From positions 11,017-75,016 of IMG/VR virus record IMGVR_UViG_2784746785_000001: a stretch of 64,000 nucleotides of DNA; one strand, 5' to 3'. Within the stretch, counting starts at the first letter, position 1, and every line of letters begins with the position of its first letter. Shown here piece after piece: positions 27,170-55,084 of the stretch. Origin of the DNA: a virus (Duplodnaviria; Caudoviricetes). The position numbers and the translations under genes were made by a program. The notes below the pieces were generated by a model. It worked only from the letters and a program-made list of their open reading frames with translations, had not been told where the DNA came from and did not search any database.

Positions 27170-27430
27170 ACTTTGTCTCCTTGTTTTGCTGGCTCCTCTT
27201 CCAGAGAAGGAGACCTGTTTTTTGCTTTGCGAGGCGCCTCACTGGATAGCGACTGATCGGTTCGCCTTTTGACTCCTCACGCTTTCTTGTTTGTGTCCTT
27301 AACGCAAACATTTAGTTTGACTTTTGAACGTCATCGTGCTATACTTATTTGGTAGTCTTATGCATGGCACGACTCCGTCTCTGAAGTCGCTTTTAATATA
27401 CGAAATCGGATTTTTGACCTGGGGATAGTT

Positions 27431-28613: not shown

Positions 28614-28827
28614 GCTTTATTCATATGAAGAAAGCACCCTGGCATTGTTGCCGAGGGTGCTGAACGAACTGAAAAACGGGTCAGTTTCTGCGGGAGAGCT
28701 GTATCTATCGCTGAAGCATAGCCTGAAGGATCCTACGGATTTTCTATCCGCAATGGACTGCCTCTACGCTTTGCGGGCAATAGACATGAGCGATGACGGG
28801 GAGGTTTCCATATGCTTAAAGAAATGA
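28597..28827 (+). CDS. ABC-3C middle component (LmuC-like)
   Basis: MQLPNKLYSYEESTL...FLSAMDCLYALRAID; overlaps both neighbours. Confidence 0.78.
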   Translation: MQLPNKLYSYEESTLALLPRVLNELKNGSVSAGELYLSLKHSLKDPTDFLSAMDCLYALRAIDMSDDGEVSICLKK

Positions 28828-30464
28828 GATCCCCGGCCTTCAGAATAGATGGTGAGGAGAGACCGCCGATAACTTTTCACGAGGGATTAAATGTTGTCCT
28901 TGGAATGGGAAACGGCAAGAATTCAATAGGAAAGTCCTCTGCAATGCAGGCTATCGACTTTGTGTTCGGTGGAAGCACCTATGTCAAAGGCGACGGCGTA
29001 AAGCATGTGGGGCACCATACGATTTTCTTCACGTTTGAATTTGACGGGCAGGAATACCGCTTTGCAAGAAATACCGGTGATCCGGATATTATTCAGGTGT
29101 GTACAGACGGATATGCCTTGACCGGAGAGACGAAGGGGAAAAGCGAATTTGTTGAGTGGCTTAAAGGAAAATATGACCTTGACTATCCCGGCTTGTCTTT
29201 CCGTTCTACACTGAGCAGTTTTTTCCGGATGCATGGGAAAAGCAATGTGAGCGCCCAGGAGACTCCACTGTATGGTGTGCGCGGGGACAGCATGCAGAAA
29301 TCATTGGACCGGCTTGTCAAGTTGTTCAATCGATATAAGGACATTGAGGCTTCCAACGCCAATCTGAGGGAACAGGACGATAAGCTCACCGCATACAAGG
29401 CTGCACGGAAGTATCAGTTTGTCTCCGATCTCGTTGGCGGCGACAAGCAATATGAAGCGAATTCCGCCAAGATCCGCTCTCTGCAGGTGGAACTTGATAA
29501 TCTCACTTCCGAGCAAGTGGAGGTGCATTCTGAAGAGGATATCGAAAAGCAGCAGAAGAAGGCCGAGCTTCGTGGACGAAAGCTTAAAATCGAGACGCAG
29601 ATCGAGGCAAAGCAACGTCGATTGAATCTGCTGGATATGAGCCTTGAGTATGGCCTGTATCCGACACAGGCTGATCTGAAATCCCTGCAGGAGTTCTTTC
29701 CTGACGTGAATATCCGGAAGCTTTACGAGGTGGAGAACTATCATCAAAAGCTCGCCAGGATTCTCGATGACCAGTTTGAAAGCGAAAAACAGGCTGTTCT
29801 TCTTGAGATCGCGGATTTGGTAGGACAGAGAAAAGATGTCAGTGAGCAGATAAAGGCACTCGGATTTGTGGGAAACATTTCCAAGGAGTTCCTTGACAGG
29901 CATTCAGAGTTAAAGGGAACCATTGATGCGTTGAAAGCACAGAACGAGTCATATTTGACACTTCGAGATTTGAAGGAGGCAAAAAAACTCGCGAATGATC
30001 AACTGAAAAATGCCATCCGGCAGGTCCTAACTGATATCGAGCAGACCATCAATGCAAAGATGGCCGAATACAACAGCACGTTGTATTCAGAACACCATAA
30101 CCCGCCAAAGCTGACGATTAAGGAATACAATAGTTTCACGTTTGAAACTAAGGGAGACGACGGAACGGCAGCGGCTTACAAGGGAATGATCATATATGAT
30201 CTTGCGATTTTGAACACTACTGGCCTTCCAGCAATCGCACATGATTCTTTGCTCTATGGTGATTTGAGTTTTGAACTGGTAGAGGGAATCATGAAGCTGT
30301 ACATGCAGAATAAAAAACAGGTGTTCATTTCATTTGACAAGCAGGAGGCACATACTCCTGAAACGCAGCGGATACTTGAAGACCATACAGTCATAAGGTT
30401 ATCTGATGGAACCGGAAAGCTATATGGACAGTCATGGGATACAGAGACAGAGGATGAGTCATGA
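28812..30464 (+). CDS. ABC-3C SMC-like ATPase (DUF2326, LmuB-like)
   Basis: Walker A NSIGKSSAMQAIDFVFGG, long coiled coil, KGDDGTAAAYK, IAHDS Walker B variant. Confidence 0.85.
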   Translation: MLKEMRSPAFRIDGEERPPITFHEGLNVVLGMGNGKNSIGKSSAMQAIDFVFGGSTYVKGDGVKHVGHHTIFFTFEFDGQEYRFARNTGDPDIIQVCTDGYALTGETKGKSEFVEWLKGKYDLDYPGLSFRSTLSSFFRMHGKSNVSAQETPLYGVRGDSMQKSLDRLVKLFNRYKDIEASNANLREQDDKLTAYKAARKYQFVSDLVGGDKQYEANSAKIRSLQVELDNLTSEQVEVHSEEDIEKQQKKAELRGRKLKIETQIEAKQRRLNLLDMSLEYGLYPTQADLKSLQEFFPDVNIRKLYEVENYHQKLARILDDQFESEKQAVLLEIADLVGQRKDVSEQIKALGFVGNISKEFLDRHSELKGTIDALKAQNESYLTLRDLKEAKKLANDQLKNAIRQVLTDIEQTINAKMAEYNSTLYSEHHNPPKLTIKEYNSFTFETKGDDGTAAAYKGMIIYDLAILNTTGLPAIAHDSLLYGDLSFELVEGIMKLYMQNKKQVFISFDKQEAHTPETQRILEDHTVIRLSDGTGKLYGQSWDTETEDES

Positions 30465-30745
30465 AGAGAAAAATGAGCTATAAGAAACTGTGGAAGTTGC
30501 TGATTGACAGAGATATGAAAAAAACAGACCTCAGAACAGGAGCGGGTATCAGTTCGTCTTCCCTCGCTAAGCTCAGCAAGGACGAAAATGTCACGACAGA
30601 TGTTTTGCTGCGGATATGTGACTCGTTGGATGTAGATTTGAATGATATAGCAGAAACTGTGCCTGAAGGTGAAACAGTTGTAGAAGTAAGAGCTGAGAAA
30701 CGCAGGCGAACGGCAACAAAACAACATAGGATTGAAAGAACCTGA
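30461..30745 (+). CDS. Cro/C1-type HTH regulator
   Basis: MSYKKLWKLLIDRDMKKTDL...LLRICDSLDVDLNDI. Confidence 0.88.
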   Translation: MKRKMSYKKLWKLLIDRDMKKTDLRTGAGISSSSLAKLSKDENVTTDVLLRICDSLDVDLNDIAETVPEGETVVEVRAEKRRRTATKQHRIERT

Positions 30746-30838: not shown

Positions 30839-33800
30839 TTGCAGATGCTTAATAGGGAAATTCCCTTTAGACCAAAGCTTGAGGGCGATTTTCGAATTCG
30901 GTTTTACAATGCTGTATCAAGCATTACTGAACAGACTTCGCTTTTTGAAATCGAGCAAATAGCCAACGATGAAATAAGGTGGGTGCAGGATGAGTGCACC
31001 TATAATTTGGAGCAAAGAAAAAAATATAGAGCGATATGGATGCTTTTCCGCGATTTAACGAGAGCATCCTGGAAAGCGTGCTACCGAGATGGCGTTTTAT
31101 ATATGAGCTTACCTAGCCTGAATGGGGCCAATTTCCACGACAGCTCATCTCCTGAGGTAAAAAGCTTATTGAGGAAATGGATGAGCGAAAGCCGCCACGA
31201 GCGCTTGGTTTCATACACTGATTTTATTCAACGGATGGAGCGCAAGAATTCAAGCGGGCATAGCATAGATGAACTTATTGCTGATGGACAAGAATTAAGC
31301 AATAGACTAAGGAAAGCAAAAGATGGCGCTATTGATATTTCTGAGGCAGTAAAACCGTATTTACAGCTAGTAGTTGAAAATGAAAGAGATGAGTATACAG
31401 GCATAAAGACATCTGAGATATGGAGATATTTTCGCCTTACGTGGTCAACCCCTGCAGAAACCACGCCTGGAAGAACTATGCAATATCTTATTAGAGACGC
31501 AGCTCATCCCATGCATGCAGTTATGGGTATTGCTTCTCTTGAAAACTGTGCAGTTCAGATTACATGCCGCGATGATTTCATTGGCTGGAATCAGAAGGCT
31601 TTTATTGATCGAATCACAAAGCTGAACTCCGAACAGGCACGTGCTGAATTTGACAGACTTTTGAATTACATAGAAGTTGGCATTTCAGGGATTGATTATG
31701 AGGAACTTTGTACACAGGCAACTGTAGATAATCCGACGGATGAGGATATACAGCAACTGCTCGATATTGCCACAAGTGCTGAGCAGCGTAGGCAGGAGTT
31801 ACTAAAAAAAGGTGTAATTGACGGTATAGATGAGGAAGATAAAAGCGATCTAGGGAGCATTTCAAAAGAAACCGAGGATGCGCTTTACAGAAGAAAAAGA
31901 GCGGAGCAGTTAGGACGGCTTTTGATGGCAAAAAAAGAGCTTTTAGCTGTTTATAGGTCTGAGGATTTTAATTCGATTTGGGTAGAGTTCTGTAATAGCG
32001 AGGTAGGAAATTCCTCTATAAGAACAGCTTTGGTTGCTCAAAAGACTCAACATATCGGGTCAAGCTTAATGGAACTGAATGTTTGCGGTGCTATACCACC
32101 ATATAATGAAATCCTTGGAGGAAAGCTTGTCGCGCTACTGGCATTATCTCCGCAGGTAATACACGATTATAAGGAACGCTATTCAAATAAGGCTAGTATG
32201 ATTGCAAGCCGACTTAAAGGTGAGGATGTCGTTCGCCCTGCTGATTTGGTGTATGTGGGAACTACATCCTTGTACTATGTTGGCTCAAGTCAATATAACA
32301 GATTAAAAATACCTGGAAGCATATTTAATGACGACTATGATGTTGTATGGAAAAAGCTTGGTATGACAATTGGCTATGGCACAATGCATATTAGTAAGGC
32401 CACAACCCTTAGCCTTACTGAGGCAACAAGCGAAGGCTTTACTCGTATTAACCATGTATTTGGTGAAGGCGCAAGTCCTAAGATGCGTCTTTTGACGATG
32501 GCCATCCGTGAGTTACTAGAGTCAACAAATGAGGACTCAAAGGATTTTTCAAAGCATGCCATGTCTCGAATTGTTTATGGTGCTTGTTTAGCCAAAAATA
32601 CAGTGCAGTACTTAATGGGTGAAGCAGATAAACCTGATTATTACACTGATGTATCAAAATATCAGGAAGGGACACAAAAAATAATAGATTACTGGACAAA
32701 TCGATGGTTGAAAAGCAGATTGAATTTTGAACCGATTTACCAGAGAATCCGCGATTTTGATAAGAAGAACCTGATGGTTGGATATCAGATTAATGACGAT
32801 GAAAGATGGAAATTCGAGAAACTCGAGGAGGTGCCACAAATGCCAGCTAATGATGAGAATAAGGTTGGGCTGCAGTTTGTCCGTGATTTCTATAGAGGAA
32901 TGAGCGCCTATGCGGATCATATCGCCCCAAAACTCCTCACGGGAATTCATCTAAAGACAAAATTAGATGATGCTGTCCTTAATGCGGCAAGGTCTGGAAA
33001 AGACGTTGTTCTCACTGGGAATCCAGGAGATGGAAAAACGCACATTATCCGCATGCTGAAGGATCAGCTAGAAAAACTGGCTGTTCCGATGGTAATCGAG
33101 CTTGATGCGAGTACTCTATCTGACGAAGAAATATATTCTCATTGGGAGCAGGCTCATAAGGATGGCAAGGCGTTTATCATAGCAATAAATGCCGCAGTTC
33201 TTTATTCGGTTTATAAAAGCCATCCTGCGTTTGGATCTGTTAAAAATGCATATGGACAAATGGCGGATGCGATAGTCTTTCACAAAAAAGATATTGATAC
33301 TAGCTCGCTTGTCGTATTTGATCTTAGTAAACGAGAGGCGCTCACGCCTGAAATACTTAGTCAGGCCATCCTTAAAATGACTGATGAAAGCCACTATAGT
33401 GAGTGCAGGTCCTGTCCACTAAGATCAAACTGTGTGGTGCATAAAAACCGAGCGCTGCTGAGAAATGATCTTTTCCAGCAAAGGCTTGGCTTAGTATTAG
33501 AGCGAGTGTCGCTCAGAGGATATCATGCAACTATTAGAGAAATTCAAAGCTTCATTTCTTATTTGATTTTCGGTGATAGAAGTTGTAAGCAACTGAACCA
33601 GACTGCAGGGAACAGTGAATACGACCTTGTTAACCTCATATATTCAGGTAAAGGCGCGTTGTTTGACGAGATTGGAAAAGCTATCGATCCTGTCAATATT
33701 TCTCATCCTATTTGGGATGAGAGGATACTACTAAACGACATTGATTCAAACTCATGGATTGAAGGCTTTGAGGTTCCGGCAGAGGCCATTGCCTATGATA

Positions 33801-34435
33801 ATGAAGACCTTTTCAATCTTAGGAAAAGACAGTTCTTCTTTTTCAATCAGTATGGGGAGGATCTGCTTTCTATTCTTGATGATGATATATCCAGATTCAG
33901 GACTTTTCTTCAGCAAGATGATGGAAAGATAATCAAGGAGTTAATAGGGAAACTTAATAGCTTTTTTGGAGCGACTAACGCTTCTAATTCGCGGTTACAA
34001 ATATGGACGGGACATCGATACAACAATGAACCAAGAAAGGTACTTATCTCAGTTGGAACTGTAAAGAAAAGTGAATTAAGCATTGGCCATCCCAGACTTC
34101 TGTCGAGTATGCAGGAAGGAATTGATATGCTTCCTAATTATATTCGATTGGAGAAGAAGTCCTCTCCTAATACCTTTCTAAAGGTGGATTTTGAGATGTA
34201 CCTTTTGCTTAATGAGGCTCAAAGAGGTGTCCCTGTTTTGTTTACGGAATCTGATCTAGTAAAGAAGGTATGGCGGTTTATCGAACAACTACAGTCATAT
34301 AGTAGTATTGATGATGAAGATATAGTTGATATTGGCCTGATGGATGTTCAGAACAAGAAAACCATTATGGTGAGCCTTGACAGGGAAGATAATAAATATT
34401 CATCGATTGAAAGCGAAAAAACAAGGGAGGCATAA
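30839..34435 (+). CDS. DruA-like (DUF4338) domain fused to a DndF/DptF-like P-loop ATPase
   Basis: N-part: YLIRD, CRDDFIGW, CGAIPPYNEILGGKLVA, TTSLYYVGSSQYNRL. C-part: LTGNPGDGKTH, IIAINAAVL, CRSCPLRSNC, TIREIQSFISYLIFG. Confidence 0.78.
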   Translation: MQMLNREIPFRPKLEGDFRIRFYNAVSSITEQTSLFEIEQIANDEIRWVQDECTYNLEQRKKYRAIWMLFRDLTRASWKACYRDGVLYMSLPSLNGANFHDSSSPEVKSLLRKWMSESRHERLVSYTDFIQRMERKNSSGHSIDELIADGQELSNRLRKAKDGAIDISEAVKPYLQLVVENERDEYTGIKTSEIWRYFRLTWSTPAETTPGRTMQYLIRDAAHPMHAVMGIASLENCAVQITCRDDFIGWNQKAFIDRITKLNSEQARAEFDRLLNYIEVGISGIDYEELCTQATVDNPTDEDIQQLLDIATSAEQRRQELLKKGVIDGIDEEDKSDLGSISKETEDALYRRKRAEQLGRLLMAKKELLAVYRSEDFNSIWVEFCNSEVGNSSIRTALVAQKTQHIGSSLMELNVCGAIPPYNEILGGKLVALLALSPQVIHDYKERYSNKASMIASRLKGEDVVRPADLVYVGTTSLYYVGSSQYNRLKIPGSIFNDDYDVVWKKLGMTIGYGTMHISKATTLSLTEATSEGFTRINHVFGEGASPKMRLLTMAIRELLESTNEDSKDFSKHAMSRIVYGACLAKNTVQYLMGEADKPDYYTDVSKYQEGTQKIIDYWTNRWLKSRLNFEPIYQRIRDFDKKNLMVGYQINDDERWKFEKLEEVPQMPANDENKVGLQFVRDFYRGMSAYADHIAPKLLTGIHLKTKLDDAVLNAARSGKDVVLTGNPGDGKTHIIRMLKDQLEKLAVPMVIELDASTLSDEEIYSHWEQAHKDGKAFIIAINAAVLYSVYKSHPAFGSVKNAYGQMADAIVFHKKDIDTSSLVVFDLSKREALTPEILSQAILKMTDESHYSECRSCPLRSNCVVHKNRALLRNDLFQQRLGLVLERVSLRGYHATIREIQSFISYLIFGDRSCKQLNQTAGNSEYDLVNLIYSGKGALFDEIGKAIDPVNISHPIWDERILLNDIDSNSWIEGFEVPAEAIAYDNEDLFNLRKRQFFFFNQYGEDLLSILDDDISRFRTFLQQDDGKIIKELIGKLNSFFGATNASNSRLQIWTGHRYNNEPRKVLISVGTVKKSELSIGHPRLLSSMQEGIDMLPNYIRLEKKSSPNTFLKVDFEMYLLLNEAQRGVPVLFTESDLVKKVWRFIEQLQSYSSIDDEDIVDIGLMDVQNKKTIMVSLDREDNKYSSIESEKTREA

Positions 34436-34440
34436 CTGTA

Positions 34441-35934
34441 ATGGAAAGAATATACCTACGCGAAGCACGTGGAGATGTTGATAAAAAATATGTTGGATTT
34501 ACTCCCAATGGGTCTGCAGTTAAGCCGGTCCATATTGCGGGAGGGTCTCTACGCTGTATCTACGGTAAATACAATCGCACGCGAAATATAAAGAAAATGG
34601 CACTTGTTTCTGATGCGAAGGGTAATGTGCCTTCTGGGAATGACGCTGATACGATTTATCAGGAGTTAGAGAATAAGGAATTAATTGAAGATAACGTTAC
34701 AGAAAACTCAGTCGAATCTATGCGAAATGAAATGCAAAGACTGCTTTCTGTAGATAGAGGTGTTTATGTCGTTAAAGGATTGAAGGATGGGATGATTTCT
34801 TACTCTGCTGGTTCAAAATACTTTTTGACTAGTAAGGCGATGTATGAGGATGCTGGAGAATTTATGGGAAGCATCGTTAGAGCCTATTGTCCTGACCTTG
34901 CGGAGTATATAAGTGAACTTCTTGATAAAGGAACAGATGCAATTACTCTGTTATTTCAACCTGTTCTTGAGGCTGACATGGAGGAATTCACTGACCAGAA
35001 TCAATATGAGGATATCCCTGCGTTTCAGAGCATGAATGACCAAATGAAAAGGTTTACCACCGGCATTGCTGAAGCCGGTTCATGCCTGTTGGACAATCTG
35101 CGGCATCATCCGAATCCCTTGACACAACTGAGGCTTTTTAACTTTTTTTGCATCTTTAACTTGATTAGATATATGGCCCTGCTAGAAGCCTTTTATTGTG
35201 GTGAGTCCGTTAGACCAATCCTTCTTGATTTTAGCGGTAAAAGTCAAAGCTTTAGCAGCGTTGCTCGTGCCTCAGAGATGTCTTATACGCAAATGTATAA
35301 ATCCATCAACAGATTTTATGCGTGGGGCTATGCAAAATGGCTTGAAGACGACAAGGGATATACAAAGGACGATCTCTTAAACTCCGAAACTCCAGCATAT
35401 GAGGAAGGTAAAAAGGTATCGAAAACGAGCAAGGAGGAATTAGATGCCTTGTGGACGCTTGCAAAGGAACGAGCGAGTACCCTTGATGGGGAGGAAATGT
35501 ATACAGCGTTTGGCGAGACAATGTATGACATGCTTGCGCTGGAGGCCTCTTCACATCCGGTTAATTATTTGAGAGCACTCGGTAACTTATCAGGGATTCT
35601 TTACCCGCCTGACAAATTCCATCCGAATAAGCGCTTTGTTGTTTCGCAGGATATCTTAGAGATGCTCCTGAGGAGTTGCGTTAAATCAAGTGAAGTAATA
35701 AGTGGTCAGGATATCAGAAAACGTCTATGGGACCGCTTTGGCATTATTATAGGCGGCGGACAATTTGAAATGACGACTCTTCACCAGAGTGGCATGATCC
35801 TTCAGATCGACGAAGATGCTCTAGAAGATAATTTCTCTGCCTTTGCATCTGTTCTTGAGTCAATGGATTTTGCAGAAATCATGGCAGATGGCATTTTGCA
35901 GATCAGATTAGGAGGCACTGAAAATGATAGATAA
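34441..35934 (+). CDS. DndG/DptG-like protein
   Basis: 497 aa, between the ATPase and FtsK genes. C-terminal LEMLLRSCV...LWDRFGIIIGG...LESMDFAEIMADG resembles DndG-type C-termini. Assignment rests largely on size and synteny. Confidence 0.55.
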   Translation: MERIYLREARGDVDKKYVGFTPNGSAVKPVHIAGGSLRCIYGKYNRTRNIKKMALVSDAKGNVPSGNDADTIYQELENKELIEDNVTENSVESMRNEMQRLLSVDRGVYVVKGLKDGMISYSAGSKYFLTSKAMYEDAGEFMGSIVRAYCPDLAEYISELLDKGTDAITLLFQPVLEADMEEFTDQNQYEDIPAFQSMNDQMKRFTTGIAEAGSCLLDNLRHHPNPLTQLRLFNFFCIFNLIRYMALLEAFYCGESVRPILLDFSGKSQSFSSVARASEMSYTQMYKSINRFYAWGYAKWLEDDKGYTKDDLLNSETPAYEEGKKVSKTSKEELDALWTLAKERASTLDGEEMYTAFGETMYDMLALEASSHPVNYLRALGNLSGILYPPDKFHPNKRFVVSQDILEMLLRSCVKSSEVISGQDIRKRLWDRFGIIIGGGQFEMTTLHQSGMILQIDEDALEDNFSAFASVLESMDFAEIMADGILQIRLGGTENDR

Positions 35935-38900
35935 GCAAGAACTTGTTATAGAACTTCTCGGTCAGCACCTGGCGGCATTAAAGGTTGGCATCATTATTAA
36001 AGGGGTAGATGGAATCTCTCCTGAATCAATAATTGCTGGCCTAGCATCAGATAGTCAGCACTTATATGGAGCAGCTATAGGATACGATGGGGTAAAGGAG
36101 CATGCAGAGAAGAACTACGATATTACAGATTCTATAGAAAAGGCAGTTCTATGGAGGAGTATTCCGGAGTGTGCGGGGCGCATAGTCGTTTTTATAAAAA
36201 CAGATACTGACAAGCTTCATTCTCTGTCAGAATTTGAAAATATAAGTACAAGAGACATCTCTCGCTATTTACTTGAGAAGCAGGTAAACAGCAACAATAA
36301 CACCCCTACAAATAATTTTTGGTCAGCTTTAGAAAAAACCTCTGACTACTACACATTCGAAGCTGTTGAAGATTTTGTTAATGCAGTCGCGAGAAGTAAA
36401 AGGCCTGAGGACGCAATACCTAAAAACATGTGGCGATTAAACTTGCTTGAGGATAATGACATCCTTGGCACGAAGAGTAAGCCAGAGGATCGCCTTGCTC
36501 AAAATCGAGATATGATTTTTGCTATTGGGCAGCTAAGTGAAGATTCAAGAAAAAAGCTTAGCCGTTCGCTCGTTCGCTCGAAGGCAAAGGACAAGGCTCG
36601 CTTGCAAGCAGCTTATCGTAGCTTACAGAATTTTTACAAGTATGGTAATCAGGATACATTAAAGGATCTTGACCTTACTACTGTTCAAGAGCTCTTTTCC
36701 GCCTCACAGAAGAAGGAGAAAGTGAAGAAGAAGGAGACACCTAATCCAACCGATGGTCCGGATTCTGACGAGCCAGATTCCAATACTCCTATTCGTCCTA
36801 AGGAACTTGATAGGTTGGTTTCTGATGCCATCGTTTTTGGCGATGATGAGGAACAAAGGGATATAAGCAATCTTCTAGAGGAGTTGGATAAGCATTACGA
36901 TACTGAGACTGAGGAAAATGATGATTCAATTCCTCCTATCGGGGGTATTTTCGAAGATCGTAGTATCGCTCTTGATACGCATCAGACAGATTTAAGGAAA
37001 CTCGTTGGTAAGTTCTGCGGCCTAAATTCATGGGGCGGCATCATGGAGACAGACGAAAGTGTCCTGAAGGATGCTATTTCCGCAGATATTAACGCTCTAC
37101 ATATATTCGACCCTGAGAGTAAAGATGCTGTCATTTCGTTTGTAGGAGGCATAGACGGAAATCAGCCTTTATTTGATTTTATTAAGCAGTTTGATGAGCA
37201 ATTTGACAGCAAAGGTCTGGAGACTCTTGAGAGATTCACTCCAATAATTGACAATCTTAAGATTGCAAGAAAAAGCCTTCTTACACATCTTGACCTGATT
37301 ATGTATCATCCAGTTCTTTTGTTTGGCGCATCTGAAAAGAGCAAGAATGATCTCATTGAATATATTCAGGCCTGGGAGCGGCTATATCACGCTTTCTGCA
37401 ACAATGAACCTACCATGAGGCAGATAAGTCCGGGCGGAACAAGTTTTATTGCAAGAGCGATATTGCTATTAGACATACTATACGTAAAAACTCCAAAGGA
37501 ATGGAAGGGTATTTTATTGCCGCTTCATCCTATTTATTTGTGGCGGTATTATGAGGTCTTCAGGACACTCCCCAATAAAAAAGCCACACTTGCGGAAGAG
37601 GATAAGGAAGCACTAGCAAAGGTCCTAACTCAATTGCCACAGGTTTTAAGTTTTATTGTTGCTAATAATCTCGTGACAAATACTTCTGAGGATCGTATTC
37701 TGCCCTGCTCTGGTAGTATTGAAATGCTACCAACGTTTGAAAACAAGACGAACCGCTACCTGGGAAATGATGGGACAGAATCGATAGAGGAAATTCTTAC
37801 AAGATGGATTGGATTCGCTCCATATACAAGAAACGAAATCAGAATTTGCTCTGTTGATGCGCCGGACTTGATTGGAATAATCCGTCAGGTCAAGCATTTT
37901 ATGGATAAAAATGAAGTAAAAAGAGTCGTTTATGATGTTTACCTTACGAGAAATCAAAATGGAAACACCGAGCTTTCAAAGCTTGATTATTCTGGCAAGG
38001 ACTACGAAATAGGTGAATTTATAAGAAATGATCGAATTGCAATTAGCATACATAATTGCAAGGATTCTACCGAAGTTAAAGTGGCATTAGAGTTTAGGCC
38101 GGTACATGTGGCTTTTTACTTTGATCAATCCTCGTATTCCATCGAGTATGGCCCGAATAGTCACAACCTGTATATTAATCCGCTTGTTATCACCTATGAG
38201 TATGACTTTGATGAGATTCAGCATAAAGGAACAATCTTCCCTTCATCTGAGTCTGAATCTGGACTTATAGGAGACTATAACAAGCTATTAAGGTCAGCGG
38301 ACATTATAAGTAACAATATGAATCCGAGGACAACATATAATGGAAATGCAGACATGACTGCTGTTGTTTCTACCATAAAGGATGCGCAGACCCAATGGCT
38401 CGTTGTAGCGGATAGAGATACAAATAACTATCAGCCTCAGTCCGCTATTCCTATTGGTGAGATGCAGTACGACAAGCGAATGGTTAATGCTTGGGCGGCA
38501 GACAATTCAAGAATAATTACGCAGTATTTGGATCTTCTTCGAGGCTATAACCTCTATCCTAAGAAGGACACACTTGTTGATATATTGCGTCAATTTGGAC
38601 ATATTGCTTCGAACGGGTTGATTAGCATACCGAGGTTCGGCGCTGATACGCAGGCAATAGACAATAAGAAGAAGGGTTTAATAGGAACACTTTTTGCAGC
38701 GTCCTGGTATATGAAAAAGTATGATGACGCCCTTGTTGCATCATTAGATGACGATAAGGCTCGCCTTTGGCTGCAAGATAGCAAATATGGAAATGAAAGA
38801 GCTGACCTTGTAGGTCTTCATTATGATGCGGTTGAAAACAAGCTTTATGTTGAGCCCATTGAGGTCAAGACTAGAGATGAATCTCCAGATGCGACAATAA

Positions 38901-40705
38901 CTAGAGATGAGGCCGATTCCAAGCACTTTAACATCTCAGGTCATGCCGCAGAGCAGATAGCGTCTATGGTTGAGCTGTTGCGGGAAATTTTCTACTCGGA
39001 TAAAAACTCAATGGATATGTTTACCTCTGCGCGGAGAGAGGTTTTGAAGTATCAAATTGTTTCTGAGTGCTTCAGAAATGTGCATGATTCTGATTGGCAA
39101 AAGAGATGGTATCTAATCTTGAAAAAGGCCTTCGGTAGTGGCGAAAGCGAAGGACTTAAGATTGAAGTTTCTGGAATTCTTCTTCATATAAAGTTGAACG
39201 AGGCCTCTGGAGGCGAACATATACCATGTAAGAATCCTGATTACGACGATTGCTCAATAGATTACTGGAAATTAACGGCAAAGGAAATACAACACGATAT
39301 CCTTGGCGAGGAAACCAAAATAAAGGAATCAATTACTCCGGATTTTGACAATTCTGAGGAATCTGATAAGGAAACTGAATCTAGTGATGACGCCTTTATT
39401 GATACTGACATAGAGGTAGCGAAGGACGAAATGGTGCCTGACAATAATGCAGTAGGACTGTATTCTAGGGATTTTTCTGATCATGGTCAAAAAGTACCGA
39501 TGGTTGCTGAGGGGAATCCAAGCAGTGCAAGCATTCTCAGAGATTCTGGTCCTACACCATATGAGACTAAAAAAAATGCTGAGAAGGAAAATAATGGTGT
39601 CAGCCGCTCCGAGATAGATCGGTTGGTTAAGGATTTTAGGCGCTCGTGTGGTGACTATCATGTTACGCTTAAGGAATGCAATGCAGAGGATACTGTTGTT
39701 GGCCCAAGCGTTATAAGGTTGAAATTCAAGCTTGGGCGAGGACAGGCCCTGCAGGGACTGCAAAGTCATCTCGAAGACATTGGCAGAGAAATGAAGAGGA
39801 CAGGCGTAATTATTCAACAGGTGCCAAATTCTGATGAGCTCTTATTGGATGTGCCGAGGCTTAAACGAGAAAAGGTACTGTTTAGGGATGTGATTGGCTC
39901 ATTACCAAAGGTCACTTCACCTGAGCAGTTGTATTTCCCGTTAGGAAGAACTCCTAATGGTACGGATCTTTTTGAGGATCTTGGAGAGATGCCACATATG
40001 CTTGTGGGAGGAAGTACTGGCTCTGGTAAATCAGTATTCCTTTTCTCAATGCTTGCCGCGATGCTGATGACTCATCCTCGAAAAGAAGACTTGCAATTAA
40101 TTCTTTCTTCAGCAAAGCTGGAGGATTTCATCCATTTTGCTGGGCTTCCCCATTTATACTCTGGCAGTATTATTTCAGATGCTGAGGAGGCCACCCGCGT
40201 AATAAAAGAGGTGGTTTATGAAGAGTCTGAGCGCAGAGGGAAGCTATTAGCTGATGCAAGAGTTGCTAACATTATAGAATACAACAAAATTGCAACTGAG
40301 AAACTTGCTCCAATTGTTGTTGTAATAGATGAGTTCGCGGATTTGGCGGACCAATTAGAAACAAAGAAGGAGCAGAATGCTTTTTATAAGCCTGTACAGC
40401 GCATAGCGCAGGCTGGCAGGAGCAGAGGAATTCATCTCGTTATATGTACGCAGAGGCCAGAAGCTAAACTGGTTCCTTCAACGACAAAAGCTCAATTGAA
40501 TGGCCGAGTTGCGTTGCGTGTAAATGATGCCATTTCTTCTAGAATGATTATTGAGGAGCCTGATGCCCAGTATCTACAGAAGCATGGAGACATGATATAT
40601 AGAAATGGTGATGTTATAGAAAGAGCCCAGGGATATTTAATCGAAATCCCTGAGTTGGACGAAATAGTTCAAAACGTAATAGACGGGAAGTATTTGAAGA
40701 GGTGA
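35924..40705 (+). CDS. DndH-like large protein: PD-(D/E)XK nuclease plus C-terminal FtsK/SpoIIIE translocase
   Basis: ERADLVG...PIEVKTRD (nuclease); HMLVGGSTGSGKS, VVVIDEFADL, GRSRGIHLVICTQRP and GDMIY (FtsK). Confidence 0.82.
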   Translation: MIDKQELVIELLGQHLAALKVGIIIKGVDGISPESIIAGLASDSQHLYGAAIGYDGVKEHAEKNYDITDSIEKAVLWRSIPECAGRIVVFIKTDTDKLHSLSEFENISTRDISRYLLEKQVNSNNNTPTNNFWSALEKTSDYYTFEAVEDFVNAVARSKRPEDAIPKNMWRLNLLEDNDILGTKSKPEDRLAQNRDMIFAIGQLSEDSRKKLSRSLVRSKAKDKARLQAAYRSLQNFYKYGNQDTLKDLDLTTVQELFSASQKKEKVKKKETPNPTDGPDSDEPDSNTPIRPKELDRLVSDAIVFGDDEEQRDISNLLEELDKHYDTETEENDDSIPPIGGIFEDRSIALDTHQTDLRKLVGKFCGLNSWGGIMETDESVLKDAISADINALHIFDPESKDAVISFVGGIDGNQPLFDFIKQFDEQFDSKGLETLERFTPIIDNLKIARKSLLTHLDLIMYHPVLLFGASEKSKNDLIEYIQAWERLYHAFCNNEPTMRQISPGGTSFIARAILLLDILYVKTPKEWKGILLPLHPIYLWRYYEVFRTLPNKKATLAEEDKEALAKVLTQLPQVLSFIVANNLVTNTSEDRILPCSGSIEMLPTFENKTNRYLGNDGTESIEEILTRWIGFAPYTRNEIRICSVDAPDLIGIIRQVKHFMDKNEVKRVVYDVYLTRNQNGNTELSKLDYSGKDYEIGEFIRNDRIAISIHNCKDSTEVKVALEFRPVHVAFYFDQSSYSIEYGPNSHNLYINPLVITYEYDFDEIQHKGTIFPSSESESGLIGDYNKLLRSADIISNNMNPRTTYNGNADMTAVVSTIKDAQTQWLVVADRDTNNYQPQSAIPIGEMQYDKRMVNAWAADNSRIITQYLDLLRGYNLYPKKDTLVDILRQFGHIASNGLISIPRFGADTQAIDNKKKGLIGTLFAASWYMKKYDDALVASLDDDKARLWLQDSKYGNERADLVGLHYDAVENKLYVEPIEVKTRDESPDATITRDEADSKHFNISGHAAEQIASMVELLREIFYSDKNSMDMFTSARREVLKYQIVSECFRNVHDSDWQKRWYLILKKAFGSGESEGLKIEVSGILLHIKLNEASGGEHIPCKNPDYDDCSIDYWKLTAKEIQHDILGEETKIKESITPDFDNSEESDKETESSDDAFIDTDIEVAKDEMVPDNNAVGLYSRDFSDHGQKVPMVAEGNPSSASILRDSGPTPYETKKNAEKENNGVSRSEIDRLVKDFRRSCGDYHVTLKECNAEDTVVGPSVIRLKFKLGRGQALQGLQSHLEDIGREMKRTGVIIQQVPNSDELLLDVPRLKREKVLFRDVIGSLPKVTSPEQLYFPLGRTPNGTDLFEDLGEMPHMLVGGSTGSGKSVFLFSMLAAMLMTHPRKEDLQLILSSAKLEDFIHFAGLPHLYSGSIISDAEEATRVIKEVVYEESERRGKLLADARVANIIEYNKIATEKLAPIVVVIDEFADLADQLETKKEQNAFYKPVQRIAQAGRSRGIHLVICTQRPEAKLVPSTTKAQLNGRVALRVNDAISSRMIIEEPDAQYLQKHGDMIYRNGDVIERAQGYLIEIPELDEIVQNVIDGKYLKR

Positions 40706-40711
40706 TTACTG

Positions 40712-41392
40712 ATGTCTGAGCCGGAGGTTAAATATGGCATATTTAAGACAGAAATCAAAAACCGTTTTCTGTGCACTGTGAATGTCGACGGGATAGACAC
40801 ACTATGCTATATTCCCTCCTCCTGCAGATTAAGTAACTTTATTAATATGAAAGGCCGAATGGTTTTGCTGTTGCCTATAAAGAAAGAAAATGCACGGACG
40901 AAATATTCCGTGTATGCCATTCAGTACAGACGAGGCTTTGTACCCGTAAGCTTGTCGAGTGTTAATCAAGTTATAAAAAACGAGCTTAATAGAAGAATTT
41001 TCTCTTTCTTGGGTAGCAGAAAACAAGTTTTTGGTGAAAAAAGCATTGATGGTTATAAGAGCGATCTTTATATAGAAGATAGCGATACAGTCGTTGAAAT
41101 TAAAAGCATTCTTTCTTTTGGCAAGGAAGCTTTGTTTCCAACCGTATCCTCAGAGCGGGCTAATCACCAGTTAGAGAATATCAGGGAACTTCTTCTGAAT
41201 GGACATAAAGTATGCTATATGTTTATTTCTATGTATGGAGGTACAAAGCAGATAACCGTTAATGAGGAGCAAACAGAATACTTTTCTCTTTTTAGGAAAT
41301 GTATAGAGGTAGGCATGACGGTTCGTGGTTTTTCCTTATATATGGATAATGGCGTGCCAAAGGTGAAGGCAACAGTCAAATGCATCTTTTAA
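40712..41392 (+). CDS. sfsA: SfsA-family DNA/RNA nuclease
   Basis: NRFLCTV..DG...CYIPSSCRL (OB fold); SDLYIE...VVEIKS; ERANHQLENI. Confidence 0.8.
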   Translation: MSEPEVKYGIFKTEIKNRFLCTVNVDGIDTLCYIPSSCRLSNFINMKGRMVLLLPIKKENARTKYSVYAIQYRRGFVPVSLSSVNQVIKNELNRRIFSFLGSRKQVFGEKSIDGYKSDLYIEDSDTVVEIKSILSFGKEALFPTVSSERANHQLENIRELLLNGHKVCYMFISMYGGTKQITVNEEQTEYFSLFRKCIEVGMTVRGFSLYMDNGVPKVKATVKCIF

Positions 41393-42081: not shown

Positions 42082-42317
42082 TAAGGTGTGAAAAAGGCTT
42101 GATTTCAGGTCTTTTTTGCTATCGAGATTATGGAAACATTCAATCAAAGGCCTTAACATAACGCTCTGCGGAAACAGTGCAACGAAGACTTGCCTGAAAA
42201 AGTGTGTATAGTTTAGACGCCGATTTAGATGTCGGGCATTAAAACAGTGGTTTAGATGTCAGAGAGAGTTTAGGTAGCGGATTGAATGTCGATGGAGAGA
42301 AAGGAGATAATTTGCGA

Positions 42318-43304
42318 ATGGAAAGAAATTTACTCGTAGGTAACGGTATTAATATTCAGTTTGGCGGAAAAGATGTATATTCTGGCTGTGCAACAATGAA
42401 TAGAGTAGTTGAAAATATAAAGGCCGGAAAATATACAGCACTAGCGGAAAATTCATTATCGACAGAAGAACAGCTTGAATTTTTAGAGGGACTGGTAAAT
42501 GTTATTAATCAAATCAGAGGAAAAAAACTCAGAGGTAATGCTGAAGGTTTGTTTATGGTAATGGAATTAGATAGAATTTCAAGAACATATCCAGAAAGAA
42601 GTAATGTGCTGTCTGTCTTTTTAGAGGATTACTTTTTGGCTTTTGAGATATTTAATAATGGATTTAGAGCAGAAGATGGAGAGGAACAGAGTGAAAAATT
42701 CAGAAAAATAGGATTTGCTTTTCTTCGCCAAATGATAGTTGATGGCATATATAATAACGGTGAAATCAACAATGTGTATAAAAATTTTTATCCAGGGATG
42801 AATAAGTACCTCAATCGATTCAGTAATATCTTCACAACAAATTACGATTATAACTTGGAAAGTACGTTAGGCAGTTCAGAGCGAATATGTCATCTTCATG
42901 GGGAGTTTTCAAAATTAGCACCAGAGTACAGTAATACCAGTTTATACTACCAGGAGCATAAACAGGAGTGCAAAAAATTGATATCTAATATGATTCATGG
43001 GATGGAACAATGCTATAGTGATGCAGTTATGAGTTGGTCTTGGCTTGATAAGTATGGAGAATTGATTGAGTCTGAAACAAAGTATAAAGAATCTCTGTTT
43101 AAATCGATAGGTGGACAGTTGGAAGTAGTTGGACTTGCACCAGCAAATGATGAGCACCTGTTTTTACTTATTAGCACCAATCCTAAAATTAAATCAGTTG
43201 TATATTACTATCATAATGATGAAGAGAGAAACGAATTGCCACACCACATTAAAAAGCCTGTAACATATAAAAAAGCAGAAAAACTATGGGATTCGCTGAA
43301 ATGA
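42318..43304 (+). CDS. SIR2-like/AbiH-like hypothetical protein
   Basis: LLVGNGINI, IFTTNYDYNLE, CHLHGEF, VVGLAPANDEH. Confidence 0.65.
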   Translation: MERNLLVGNGINIQFGGKDVYSGCATMNRVVENIKAGKYTALAENSLSTEEQLEFLEGLVNVINQIRGKKLRGNAEGLFMVMELDRISRTYPERSNVLSVFLEDYFLAFEIFNNGFRAEDGEEQSEKFRKIGFAFLRQMIVDGIYNNGEINNVYKNFYPGMNKYLNRFSNIFTTNYDYNLESTLGSSERICHLHGEFSKLAPEYSNTSLYYQEHKQECKKLISNMIHGMEQCYSDAVMSWSWLDKYGELIESETKYKESLFKSIGGQLEVVGLAPANDEHLFLLISTNPKIKSVVYYYHNDEERNELPHHIKKPVTYKKAEKLWDSLK

Positions 43305-43322
43305 TATTTTTTGAAAAAATAC

Positions 43323-43354
43323 TTGACAGGGACAAAGTCCCTACTTGCTAAGAT
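43323..43354 (+). promoter_or_regulatory. MerR-type promoter with dyad operator
   Basis: TTGACA, 20-bp spacer, TAAGAT; dyad AGGGAC-AAA-GTCCCT at 43328-43342. Confidence 0.8.
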
Positions 43355-43379
43355 AGGTCTTGAAAGGAGGTCGAAGTAT

Positions 43380-44066
43380 ATGAGACCAAAAGAAATTCAA
43401 GAAAAACTCAATATCGATGGTGACAGAATTAAGCTGTTTAAGAGGGAGGGAATCTTCACACCGGAGAATCCACCATCTGGAAATCGAAGCACCAATTATA
43501 CAGATGCAGATTGTGAGCATTTACGATTGCTTGTAGTGCTTACTAAATCTGGGCTTACATGCAGCGATATCAGAAAGTTGCAAGAAGGTGAATGCACTTT
43601 AGAAGAAGCAATAAAAATCAGAAAGAATAATATTGATGCTGAGATAAAGAGAAAGCAAAATGCATTGATTTTGCTTTCAGAACTTCTTGCTGATAAGGTG
43701 GAATTTGAAACATTCGAAACAGACCATTATTGGAATGTTATTGCGGCGAGAGAAGCAGAGGGCGAGGAATTCATCAATACAGAAGATATGTATGGCTATC
43801 GTGCGGTATCGTTAATTCGCAGTATCAAATGCCCTTATTGCGGTGAGGAACATGAAGTGGATTTAGAAGATTACATGTATGACGAGAGCAGTTATGAGAA
43901 AGAGAATGGAATGGGACCAGATGTAGTCTATAGCTTTAATTCCGAGGATGGTTATGAATGTCATGAATGTGGTAGAATTATACAAATCGAAGGTTGGATT
44001 CGAGAATACCCTGAAGGGGCATACGATTCGGAAGATATCAATGTAGTCGAAGGAGAGAAGGATTAG
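43380..44066 (+). CDS. MerR-family regulator with a C-terminal Zn-ribbon-like domain
   Basis: N-terminal MerR HTH (REGIFTPE...NYTDAD..HL..L..L...GLTCSDI); CPYC and CHEC motifs. Confidence 0.82.
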   Translation: MRPKEIQEKLNIDGDRIKLFKREGIFTPENPPSGNRSTNYTDADCEHLRLLVVLTKSGLTCSDIRKLQEGECTLEEAIKIRKNNIDAEIKRKQNALILLSELLADKVEFETFETDHYWNVIAAREAEGEEFINTEDMYGYRAVSLIRSIKCPYCGEEHEVDLEDYMYDESSYEKENGMGPDVVYSFNSEDGYECHECGRIIQIEGWIREYPEGAYDSEDINVVEGEKD

Positions 44067-44492: not shown

Positions 44493-44714
44493 ATGGAAGT
44501 TAGTTATAAAAAATTATGGAAAATTTTGATCGACAAAGACATGAAAAAGAAAGACTTACAGGCAGCTGCTGGAATGAGCTGGGCTTCAGTTACAAAGCTT
44601 TCAAAGGGAGAGACTGTAAGCATGGAAGTGTTGATGAAGGTGTGCAAGGCACTTGACTGTAATATAGGAGATATTATGGATTTTATCCCCACAGATGGAG
44701 ATAGCAAAGCTTGA
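44493..44714 (+). CDS. Cro/C1-type HTH regulator
   Basis: MEVSYKKLWKILIDKDMKKKDL...VCKALDCNIGDI; paralogue of 30461. Confidence 0.88.
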   Translation: MEVSYKKLWKILIDKDMKKKDLQAAAGMSWASVTKLSKGETVSMEVLMKVCKALDCNIGDIMDFIPTDGDSKA

Positions 44715-44725
44715 GGGGTGAGAAT

Positions 44726-45850: not shown

Positions 45851-45884
45851 GGCAGAGGGCATATTAATGAGGATGGGAAAACAA

Positions 45885-47529: not shown

Positions 47530-47538
47530 GGTGGAACC

Positions 47539-49668: not shown

Positions 49669-49670
49669 CC

Positions 49671-55030: not shown

Positions 55031-55084
55031 GTATAATTATCCTTGTAACAATTGATTCTCACAATACACTTAAGGAGGATGATT

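Follow-up and report, generated by a model that had tools for sequence, protein, structure and literature searches.

A prophage-borne operon probably representing a DruA-associated branch of the DndFGH/SspFGH restriction machines

The SspFGH system of Vibrio anguillarum FF-93 (Wang et al. 2021, PMC8092258) comprises a Walker A protein (SspF), a partner (SspG), and a giant protein that ends in an FtsK-like motor (SspH), encoded in this order. Defense needs all three genes, which are accompanied by sspBCD/iscS phosphorothioation (PT); without PT, SspFGH damages cells (PMC8092258). DndFGH (DptFGH) machines are mostly stand-alone and usually decoupled from PT modification (PMC10853773). DndF is recognized by a canonical Walker A, an Asn in Walker B, and an acidic residue that follows strand 2, together with a large helical lid and an alpha+beta domain; DndH combines three domains, an inactive methyltransferase, an REase, and HerA/FtsK (PMC10853773). 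Variable N-terminal fusions of DndF, among them the clear effectors HEPN, NERD, and kinases, were read by Rakesh, Aravind and Krishnan (NAR 2024, PMC10853773) as protein-targeting back-up effectors; a GNAT (DUF4338) fusion is also listed and is given one phrase, as an optional protein-targeting co-effector. The main text of that paper has no occurrence of SfsA and no mention of Druantia, linkage to DruE1, or an arrangement with DruA, F, G, and H as separate genes. Type I Druantia (DruABCDE; e.g., P. putida pKF715A) begins with the gene for the DruA/DUF4338 module, and cells with this system, which has no methylase domain, gain a motif-specific "m6A" SMRT signal (bioRxiv 10.1101/2024.04.14.589459). 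The GNAT-fold enzyme Mom of phage Mu, with catalytic residues R111/S124, transfers glycine to adenine N6 in double-stranded DNA (PMC13219725).

The analyzed window, a 64,000-nt stretch of DNA, contains four co-directional, tightly packed plus-strand ORFs at 30845–41392. The first (30839–34435) encodes 1198 aa if opened at TTG, but the ATG at 30845, giving 1196 aa, is the more likely start because the purine-rich ribosome-binding site AGAAGAGGA lies just 5' of it and almost all homologues are 1196 aa long. The others are located at 34441–35934 (497 aa), 35924–40705 (1593 aa), and 40712–41392 (226 aa). The intergenic distances of 5, −11, and 6 nt are exactly those given in an earlier note on this DNA.

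Gene 1 (30845–34435) encodes a long-form DruA (DUF4338, GNAT fold) fused to a DndF/SspF-type P-loop protein, as judged from HMMs and an AF2 model (mean pLDDT 92.5, pTM 0.86) in which the two halves are packed confidently; the two-part composition proposed previously, DruA/DUF4338-like and P-loop ATPase, was thus recovered. The DruA module of 665 aa, absent from SspF, matched Pfam DruA at 1e-33 and the long-form PADLOC DruA1 model over its whole length (1e-118, positions 43–639 of 675), while the short classical Druantia DruA (409 aa) aligns only with residues ~387–633. The GNAT-fold core with a long helical insertion (aa ~165–600; 31337–32644) was delimited by VIA-align and conservation. The best-covering structural match of the model was Mom (PDB 8bv8, chain B; Z 9.7, rmsd 3.6 Å, 171 of 202 residues aligned). 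This likeness, a comparison by fold, is non-specific: sequence identity is about 10%, DruA is three times larger, dozens of GNATs match at Z 8–9.4, tying Mom with ordinary acetyltransferases, and the GNAT matches lie within one Z unit of each other. Most of them are protein or small-molecule acetyltransferases. Conservation computed over 64 fused and stand-alone DruAs highlighted the beta4-alpha3 loop C414-G-A..P419-Y..G426-K-L, which looks cofactor-loop-like, and the motif S482-Q-Y-N-R486. The DruA half is probably a conserved and active GNAT-fold acyl or aminoacyl transferase; a winged-helix-like pattern at its N-terminus is only our reading of the predicted secondary structure.

The second half of gene 1 (aa ~670–1196; 32852–34432) matched PADLOC SspF at 1e-16 over residues 693–935 and DndF at 4e-7. 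It has an intact Walker A (G725-NPGDGKT732), D754 after strand 2, and Asn782 in the Walker B position, and the secondary structure of the model adds a ~200-aa helical lid and a C-terminal alpha+beta domain. With these features, this half fits the published DndF signature (PMC10853773). In VIA-align its P-loop domain matched STAND/ORC proteins at Z 9–10.4.

Gene 2 (34441–35934) was assigned to the SspG/DndG/MAD7 family of partner proteins from the HMM matches of the gene and its homologues. The window copy matched no Pfam family and gave weak matches to SspG in PADLOC (E 0.0047) and to MAD7 in NCBIfam (E 0.0023). The SspG model was matched by 5 of 12 family members (best 4e-16), an archaeal homologue matched SspG at 2.5e-12, and Atlas neighbors of gene 2 carry PF26611 MAD7. 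The product is presumed to be a DNA-binding subunit. The MADS system of Pseudomonas aeruginosa (bioRxiv 10.1101/2023.03.30.534895, PMC13662399) also bears a likeness to the gene 3 motor, which matched the mad8 model in all 11 homologues. However, the MADS matches of the window proteins are far under NCBIfam cut-offs, and MADS consists of eight genes, including its own methyltransferase, kinase, and OLD-like MAD3/4 module, none of which are present in the window operon.

Gene 3 (35924–40705) encodes a DndH/SspH-like giant subunit, identified from HMMs and an AF2 model (mean pLDDT 78 for residues 1–1200). Matches were obtained to SspH in PADLOC (8e-63) and to Pfam FtsK_SpoIIIE (3e-30), and all 11 homologues matched SspH or DndH. 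A class I methyltransferase fold (aa ~608–862; 37745–38509) was recognized by VIA-align, with Z 10–12.2 to many SAM methyltransferases and 247 chains at Z ≥ 8, and by Foldseek, whose matches include M.BseCI. Neither the [DNS]PP[YFW] motif nor the Gly-rich SAM loop was found in it, and the fold is predicted to be inactive. It is followed by a PD-(D/E)xK nuclease domain (aa ~910–1128; 38651–39307) resembling McrC (6hz4_M; Z 9.5, 128 residues aligned). Its residues D961...E980-V-K982 do not vary in alignments of 11 and of 40 homologues reaching down to 19% identity. The C-terminal FtsK alpha+beta translocase motor (aa ~1254–1581; 39683–40666) was defined by phmmer, Pfam, and conserved residues; it matched FtsK 2ius/2iuu in the PDB at 2e-38 (phmmer), and its Walker A GSGK1369S, D1469/E1470, Arg finger R1499, and sensor Q1510 are conserved. 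The 1593-aa PD-(D/E)XK nuclease-FtsK protein described in the earlier note was thereby borne out. The order of inactive methyltransferase, intact REase, and FtsK alpha/beta motor matches domains v–vii of DndH, while the N-terminal ~600 aa gave no match to the SWI2/SNF2-like, beta-sandwich, or TRD domains of DndH. Compared with the DndH "capture" variants (PMC10853773), the window motor is of the cellular-FtsK type with an alpha domain.

Gene 4 (40712–41392) encodes a divergent SfsA nuclease with an OB domain and a PD-(D/E)xK domain (Pfam SfsA and SfsA_N). Its nuclease motif, D118 and E129-I-K131, is invariant in six homologues. The protein scored 67 bits against TIGR00230 (cut-off 126), while a canonical sfsA elsewhere in the genome scored 169 bits; gene 4 is thus a second SfsA. 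An SfsA partner recurs in relatives, downstream or upstream, but is missing in many of them and is therefore non-essential: SfsA is a common accessory that the system can do without. Its identity as the fourth gene stood, while its membership in the core did not.

No match to DndC, DndE, DUF4007/SspB, or the MZB domain of the DruE-type helicase was found in the window or in the whole 3.72-Mb genome (98.9% complete), which extends the previously reported absence of PT genes and DruE from the 64 kb; for DndE and DUF4007/SspB the negatives are weak, since their controls matched in no genome. Genes 2–4 gave no DruB/C/D matches, in contrast to type I Druantia. The operon is thus more probably than not a stand-alone machine of the DndFGH/SspFGH superfamily, as most DndFGH machines are. 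The proposed DndFGH likeness holds for the F/G/H restriction module, but by HMM SspFGH is the closer kin, being the best PADLOC match of the three proteins. Outside the motor, sequence similarity to SspFGH is low (SspF 1e-16; SspG 5e-3 for the window copy), and the operon differs from it in the lack of detected PT genes and in the attached SfsA gene. Within the reach of this analysis, the operon corresponds to no catalogued complete system; the claim of an undescribed system does not survive, since GNAT (DUF4338)-DndF fusions are listed in PMC10853773.

Genes 1-2-3 were found colinear in at least 15 loci, at identities from 97% down to about 20%; chance falls far short of explaining the conservation of the gene set. 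DruA together with F/G/H, fused or split, occurs in Clostridia, Bacteroidota, and on haloarchaeal plasmids, to about 20%–30% identity; it is separate from F on these plasmids and in locus L013. The combination is old and widespread in bacteria and archaea, and not the one-off rewiring of DndFGH to a DruA-like module that had been suggested. Some relatives have HerA/DUF87 in place of FtsK, with the N-terminal 1100 aa remaining homologous, an exchange named "HerA/FtsK capture" by Rakesh et al. (PMC10853773). On haloarchaeal plasmids, a full DruE1 helicase operon lies divergently beside the DruA and SspFGH-like genes, together with a weak DruD-like gene, which points to a relation to Druantia closer than a borrowed domain. 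Decaying copies (L001, L007, L008, and a Hymenobacter locus with an IS insertion) indicate that the system is often lost.

On balance we favor the view that the operon is a distinct DruA-associated branch of the ATP-driven DndFGH/SspFGH restriction machines, carried as prophage cargo and supplemented with an SfsA nuclease. By homology to DndFGH/SspFGH, where all three genes are required, the products of genes 1, 2, and 3 would form one complex. Binding and reading of DNA may fall to gene 2 together with the N-terminal two thirds of gene 3, its dead methyltransferase fold included; the FtsK motor, whose motifs are intact, would move along double-stranded DNA, and the likewise intact PD-(D/E)xK domain would nick or cut DNA judged foreign. 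The P-loop half of gene 1 may bind nucleotide and gate the machine; an intact Walker A with Asn in the Walker B position makes this half likelier to act as a sensor or kinase than as a motor. SfsA could serve as an optional second nuclease, finishing nicked or unwound DNA, or as a back-up effector. Because unrestrained SspFGH/DndFGH is toxic and the operon has no other modification enzyme, the DruA half might, by analogy with Mom acting at adenine N6, mark host DNA for self/non-self discrimination, which we consider a tentative but serious option. A protein-directed co-effector is a lesser possibility, and a sensor or regulator is an equally modest one.

It is rather unlikely, although already published as an interpretation (PMC10853773), that in the same machine the GNAT half serves as a back-up suicide effector or as an acylator of host or phage proteins, acting when the main restriction is blocked. 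Self-discrimination would then have no basis other than the many DNA-binding domains and nucleotide sensing. The effector nature of the HEPN, NERD, and kinase fusions and the mostly protein or small-molecule acetyltransferases among the GNAT matches agree with this explanation. However, DruA is not sporadic: to about 25% identity and into Archaea it accompanies F/G/H, either fused or encoded by a first gene of its own, and in type I Druantia it is just as constant, a retention pattern better suited to a core function than to an optional back-up. The confident packing of the gene 1 halves also argues against it.

The operon is prophage-borne cargo; the earlier note had placed it in a prophage-adjacent defense island. 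A prophage makes up the left 26 kb of the window, with genes for tail, capsid, portal, TerL, primase, PolA, and DUF2800, and the operon lies within an adjoining block of 41% GC. Its flanking defense neighbors are ABC-3C, Type III R-M, and Shedu, and the carriers are prophages or mobile elements. A gene for a Cro/C1-type HTH protein (30461–30745, plus strand, 94 aa; Pfam HTH_26 2e-18) is located directly 5' of gene 1, as are homologous small HTH genes in loci L001–L007, P0009, and L029; it is likely the transcriptional regulator of the operon. Upstream, on the same strand, is an ABC-3C system (27474–30464) consisting of a CTD11 effector (27474–28613), MC7 (28540–28827), and a DUF2326 ABC ATPase (28812–30464). 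It is kept in L002, L003, L005, L006, and P0009, with a partial copy in L001, which makes it a recurrent upstream neighbor, possibly co-transcribed with the operon.

That these three genes, the HTH gene, and the four-gene operon form one co-transcribed, co-operating eight-gene cassette is improbable. The ABC ATPase gene runs into the HTH gene, its stop codon overlapping the start of the latter, and the sole strong promoter-like site (27317–27345) lies upstream of ABC-3C. The ABC ATPases are about 30% identical where gene 1 is 70%–77% identical; different ABC-3C variants thus hold the same position. On the other hand, ABC-3C is missing from L028, L029, L017, L018, and all distant relatives, the ABC ATPase is broken at P0009 where the four genes are intact, and the co-location may be due only to a cargo slot that both share in prophages. 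Three genes already make up a complete ABC-3C system. It is highly improbable that the operon is a mobile-element module for DNA segregation, transfer, or packaging around an FtsK pump, since, although the motor has a genuine FtsK alpha/beta domain and the loci sit on prophages, mobilizable elements, and plasmids, the intact restriction-type nuclease, the dead methyltransferase fold, and SspF/G/H homology are traits of proven defense systems, the motor was swapped between clades with the remainder kept, the neighbors are defense genes, and the distribution is patchy (no copy in the 399 other genomes sampled from the class).

For the DruA-associated restriction machine, the new elements are the confident model giving the DruA half a GNAT fold with Mom as its best-covering match, the recurrent SfsA partner, the ABC-3C/HTH neighbors, and the archaeal DruE1 link. 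The DruA-fused operon may show what DruA does.

The four ORFs that the earlier note had placed at 30839-41392 were reproduced exactly in position, strand and spacing. All lie on the plus strand: gene 1 at 30839-34435, gene 2 at 34441-35934 (497 aa), gene 3 at 35924-40705 and gene 4 at 40712-41392, with intergenic spacings of 5, -11 and 6 nt, the 11-nt overlap being that of genes 2 and 3. The true start of gene 1 is more probably the ATG at 30845, since a purine-rich ribosome-binding site lies directly 5' of it and 1196 aa is the length of nearly all close homologues. Judged from its sequence, the operon belongs to a widespread branch of the DndFGH/SspFGH superfamily that is linked to DruA; in the window, it includes an accessory nuclease, SfsA, and is carried by a prophage.

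The operon is contained in a block of ~41% GC, which starts at about 27 kb. To the left of it, 26 kb of the window have ~57% GC and represent a prophage with genes for tail, capsid, portal, large terminase, primase, family A polymerase and DUF2800 proteins; one prophage gene (12542-13801) encodes a ParB_N-fused N6/N4 DNA methylase, a typical phage anti-restriction methylase. Upstream of the operon, the low-GC block contains a complete ABC-3C system (CTD11 effector, MC7 middle component at 28540-28827, and DUF2326 ABC ATPase) and a small HTH_26 gene, together occupying 27474-30745; the HTH gene, whose start overlaps the ABC stop codon, lies directly upstream of the operon. Just downstream (42282-44066), a family-less 340-aa ORF is followed after a 6-nt gap by a gene for a 251-aa MerR-type HTH protein, and neither is conserved in related loci. 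Two more ORFs without a family (44711-45850 and 45807-46748) precede the gene for a radical SAM protein (254 aa, weak similarity to DUF5131), which is located directly upstream of a Type III restriction-modification pair (Mod at 47539-49668, Res at 49671-52553; whole region 46765-52553). RhuM and four tandem same-strand tyrosine recombinase genes (54124-58332; 283, 429, 347, and 386 aa) are also found downstream, the latter followed by Shedu SduA (59265-60515) and then by a DUF6933 protein (63007-63588). The location had been described as a prophage-adjacent defence island, and this was correct, given the 26-kb prophage and the ABC-3C, Type III Mod/Res and Shedu neighbours.

Gene 1 encodes a fusion of DruA with an F subunit. 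It matched the PADLOC DruA1 model at 1e-118 over positions 43-639 of 675, which corresponds to the whole long form, and the Pfam family DruA (PF14236, DUF4338) at 1e-33; for residues 1-165, a lenient Pfam scan gave nothing usable. The AlphaFold2 model of gene 1, built from 72 diverse sequences, had a mean pLDDT of 92.5 and a pTM of 0.86. In a wide structural search with this model, residues ~165-600 were recognized as a GNAT fold with a long helical insertion, matching dozens of acetyltransferases at Z 8-9.4. The best-covering match of the DruA half was phage Mu Mom (8bv8_B; Z 9.7, rmsd 3.6 Å, 171 residues aligned), whose catalytic residues are R111 and S124; the likeness is one of fold. On the basis of the model, the GNAT fold is established, and specific kinship with Mom is not, since the GNAT Z values are tied within one unit. 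The GNAT core is conserved in fused and free homologues, both in the beta4-alpha3 loop (C414-G-A..P419-Y..G426-K-L) and in the block S482-Q-Y-N-R486.

The F half of gene 1 matched the PADLOC model of SspF at 1e-16 (residues 693-935) and that of DndF more weakly, at 4e-7. A P-loop domain similar to those of STAND/ORC proteins (Z 9-10.4) is formed by residues ~672-944; its Walker A motif G725-NPGDGKT732, D754 following strand 2 and, in the Walker B position, Asn782 were conserved in all 51 of 51 sequences. In the model, helices at 835-1040 make up a lid of ~200 residues, and an alpha+beta region spans 1050-1191. This set of features (Walker A, Walker B Asn, post-strand-2 acidic residue, lid, and C-terminal alpha+beta domain) is the DndF signature given in the re-analysis of DndFGH by Rakesh, Aravind and Krishnan (PMC10853773). 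Sequence searches of PDB with genes 1 and 2 found nothing, and Foldseek searches of PDB with the whole models of genes 1 and 3 gave no match at E <= 1e-3; the domains of genes 1 and 3 were resolved only by the wide structural aligner.

No Pfam family was found for gene 2, even in a lenient scan. The window copy weakly matched SspG of PADLOC (E 0.0047), and its similarity to MAD7 was sub-threshold (17 bits against a cut-off of 410). Among 12 members of the gene 2 family, five matched PADLOC SspG (PDLC02799; best 4e-16); an archaeal homologue matched SspG at 2.5e-12, and language-model neighbours of gene 2 carry Pfam MAD7. By size (450-500 aa) and homology to DndG/SspG, gene 2 is predicted to be the G subunit, with stronger support at the family level than for the window copy. 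In the reference module, the G subunit is built of three winged-helix domains.

Gene 3 encodes a giant DndH/SspH-like protein. Its C-terminus is a bona fide FtsK alpha+beta motor (2e-38 to PDB 2ius) with the conserved Walker A GSGKS, arginine finger R1499 and sensor glutamine Q1510. Two domains were recognizable in the model of residues 1-1200 (pLDDT 78). Residues ~608-862 adopt a class I methyltransferase fold (Z 10-12; 247 chains at Z >= 8) in which neither the [DNS]PP[YFW] motif nor a glycine-rich SAM loop was found. Residues ~910-1128 form a McrC-like PD-(D/E)xK domain (Z 9.5), and its D961 and E980-V-K982 are invariant among homologues down to 19% identity. The order of an inactive methylase, a REase with an intact motif and a HerA/FtsK motor is the C-terminal architecture of DndH. 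For residues 1-600, the model had a pLDDT of about 70-90, and the structure-search matches were filled by the methyltransferase domain. The N-terminus of DndH consists of an inactive SWI2/SNF2 C-domain, an HTH, two beta-sandwiches and a TRD. Lenient Pfam scans of gene 3, covering residues 1-610 and the methyltransferase-like and nuclease parts, gave nothing usable.

Gene 4 encodes an SfsA-type nuclease with OB and PD-(D/E)xK domains (Pfam SfsA_N at 5e-8, SfsA at 7e-13), and D118 and E129-I-K131 are invariant in the alignment of its homologues. Catalytic motifs are intact in both nucleases and both P-loop domains of the operon, and its methyltransferase fold is dead. By sequence criteria, gene 4 is an extra, divergent SfsA paralogue, since it scored 67 bits with TIGR00230, below the equivalog cut-off of 126, and a canonical sfsA is present on another contig of the genome. 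A third, partial SfsA_N-like match to the OB domain was observed in the same genome near a contig start (G000:C14:1457-1660, L021; 37 bits, 115-aa frame). SfsA follows gene 3 in seven close-clade loci and is degraded in one; a relative with 52% identity, located on a mobilisable element, has it directly upstream of the fusion gene. That it has been kept in two different positions speaks for a functional link to the operon. It was absent from L029, L017 and all more distant related loci and is therefore considered accessory.

The distribution of the fusion was analyzed next to its gene order. Full-length relatives of gene 1 with 70-97% identity form more than 120 clusters (at 90% identity); clustering at 50% identity gave about fifty full-length fusion clusters, reaching 29% identity. 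The earlier note had read the operon as an undescribed chimera in which a DndFGH-like machine was rewired to DruA. The domain identities, their combination and the stand-alone status held; a recent origin is rejected given this depth of the fusion family, and the fused architecture and stand-alone status have already been published, in silico (PMC10853773). The main text of that paper mentions neither SfsA nor Druantia, and the text of its supplement has no DUF4338, SfsA or GNAT entries. The fusion was found in Peptoniphilaceae, Lachnospiraceae, Anaerovoracaceae, Oscillospiraceae and other Clostridia. Besides fusions, DruA-like (~650-700 aa) and F-like (~520 aa) relatives also exist as free proteins. 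A split form, in which the operon opens with a DruA gene of its own and the F-, G- and H-like genes come after it, was found in locus L013 and in three genera of haloarchaea, on plasmids. The operon structure is conserved: in the neighbourhood survey suggested earlier, every locus of sufficient length showed genes 1-2-3 in colinear arrangement, which amounts to 15 or more related loci with identities from 97% down to ~20%. Distant members have a HerA/DUF87-type motor, yet the N-terminal ~1100 residues of gene 3 are still homologous; this motor swap is the "HerA/FtsK capture" of Rakesh et al. (PMC10853773).

The neighbourhood statistics are based on ~20 loci, some of which are mutually related and which come from metagenomes, MAGs and plasmids. 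The most constant neighbour of the operon is the small HTH gene. Six or seven close-clade loci have ABC-3C and the HTH gene ahead of the operon; elsewhere, ABC-3C is lacking. Identity of the ABC ATPase is only ~30% at 70-77% identity of gene 1, as though one slot were filled by different ABC-3C variants. Among 400 species genomes of the same class, the system was present only in the window's own genome (0/399 others) and is therefore patchy and mobile. The same PolA/DUF2800 prophage genes are located upstream in L006, and a PolA fragment lies downstream in L003, which indicates that the cassette travels with related prophages; despite prophage carriage here, tblastn against 50,697 phage genomes found no relative. 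Decaying copies were also observed. In L001 (5570-10533), gene 3 is split into two ORFs, and only remnants of SfsA are left. Gene 1 is truncated in a Cryptobacteroides MAG of Bacteroidota (L007 6844-8598, 584 aa) and in an Oscillospiraceae MAG (L008 10001-10777, 258 aa), and the copy on a Hymenobacter plasmid (L023 12295-20901) is interrupted by an IS3 element.

Comparison with named systems placed the operon closest to DndFGH/SspFGH. Genes 1-3 have the three-gene F, G, H order, and gene 3 combines the features of the H subunit (inactive methyltransferase fold, REase with an intact motif, and FtsK with the arginine finger and sensor glutamine). The classical phosphorothioate partnership with dndABCDE or sspABCD was not found, and the 2024 re-appraisal does not demand it. 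A single copy of gene 1 is present in the genome (3.72 Mb, 98.9% complete). The earlier note had found no dndBCDE or DruE in the 64 kb, and this extends to the whole genome: DndC was not matched, and neither were DndE and DUF4007/SspB, these two being weak negatives since their controls gave a signal in no control genome. The MZB domain of DruE-type helicases (PF09369) also gave no match throughout the genome, its control being positive in 8 of 14 genomes.

Type I Druantia shares DruA (DUF4338) with the window, where the features of DruE, DruB, DruC and DruD were not found; the PADLOC scan of genes 2-4 gave no match to DruB, DruC or DruD. The classical type I Druantia of P. putida pKF715A contains a 409-aa DruA followed by four genes, the last encoding an 1841-aa helicase. 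This short DruA aligns only with residues ~387-633 of gene 1, in contrast to the long-form module of the window. Haloarchaeal plasmids of three genera (NZ_CP127176.1, NZ_CP098517.1 and NZ_CP087722.1; L024 58-18773, L025, and L026) have a common seven-gene layout. One arm encodes a hypothetical protein, a weakly DruD-like protein and a DruE1 helicase (1807 aa; full PADLOC DruE1 model, 1569 bits), and the other, divergent from it, encodes DruA1, SspF-like and SspG-like proteins and an SspH-like FtsK. At this one locus, DruA thus has a Druantia-type arm on one side and an SspFGH-type arm on the other. A third context of long-form DruA was observed on the Roseobacter plasmids NZ_CP083555.1 (L031 7578-22852) and NZ_CP045391.1 (L027), where two genes for "ATP-binding proteins" (641 and 588 aa) lie ahead of DruA and the second of them runs into its start; in Leisingera, a 2094-aa DEAD/DEAH helicase and a NERD protein come after long-form DruA. 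MADS, with its core of MAD6, MAD7 and MAD8 plus a methyltransferase, is a poor description of the operon, which has a sub-threshold MAD7, motor-only similarity to mad8 and no MAD1-6 equivalent.

By analogy with the studied relatives (PMC8092258, PMC10853773), the three core proteins would form one complex, all three being needed, which would translocate on DNA and damage it. SspFGH expressed without phosphorothioation damages the host (PMC8092258); an orphan system therefore needs either gating or a mark on self DNA. In the published reading, such DndF fusions are back-up co-effectors, i.e., protein-directed effectors, and all eight Dnd genes occur together in only 7% of taxa with Dnd genes (PMC10853773). 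Another reading is that DruA writes a mark on self DNA. Mom is a GNAT enzyme that moves glycine from Gly-tRNA to adenine N6 in double-stranded DNA (PMC13219725). E. coli with type I Druantia gains an "m6A" SMRT signal at CAGCTGNC, with no methylase domain in the system (bioRxiv 10.1101/2024.04.14.589459), and DruA is the sole enzyme-like module common to type I Druantia and the window system. These three points make a writer role plausible. However, the Mom match is not specific, no DNA-binding domain has been demonstrated in DruA, and the published reading is that of a protein-directed effector, so we regard DNA writing by DruA as rather unlikely. The full proposal is, if anything, slightly more doubtful: DruA would be a Mom-like GNAT that writes a motif-specific adenine-N6 adduct on host DNA, would be the source of the m6A-like signal of type I Druantia, and would spare the chromosome from the orphan F/G/H proteins. 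We rate the identity of the operon as a DruA-associated F/G/H restriction system much higher. The Type III Mod (47539-49668) and the prophage ParB-methylase (12542-13801) were rejected as cognate modifiers, since the related loci contained neither.

DruA is the signature protein of type I Druantia, and DndFGH/SspFGH are toxic without a modification partner, yet mostly occur without one. The operon joins both puzzles in one polypeptide, and the fused form recurs in bacteria and archaea beside split and DruE1-flanked forms. In the ordinary reading, as a DruA-associated F/G/H system, it defines a widespread prophage- and plasmid-borne branch that annotation pipelines apparently split up; plasmid copies are labelled in RefSeq as "Druantia anti-phage system protein DruA", "hypothetical protein" and "DNA translocase FtsK". 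If DruA were a writer, type I Druantia and the window system would represent two restriction arms, a DruB-E helicase-nuclease and an F/G/H translocase-nuclease, around one modification enzyme of a new kind, neither methyl nor phosphorothioate, and on the haloarchaeal plasmids both arms would share a single DruA. This would account for the methylase-free DNA marking by type I Druantia and would bring a new class of epigenetic mark into restriction-modification. The main value of the operon is as a compact four-gene test bed for whether DruA provides the self/non-self signal by DNA marking or acts as an effector.
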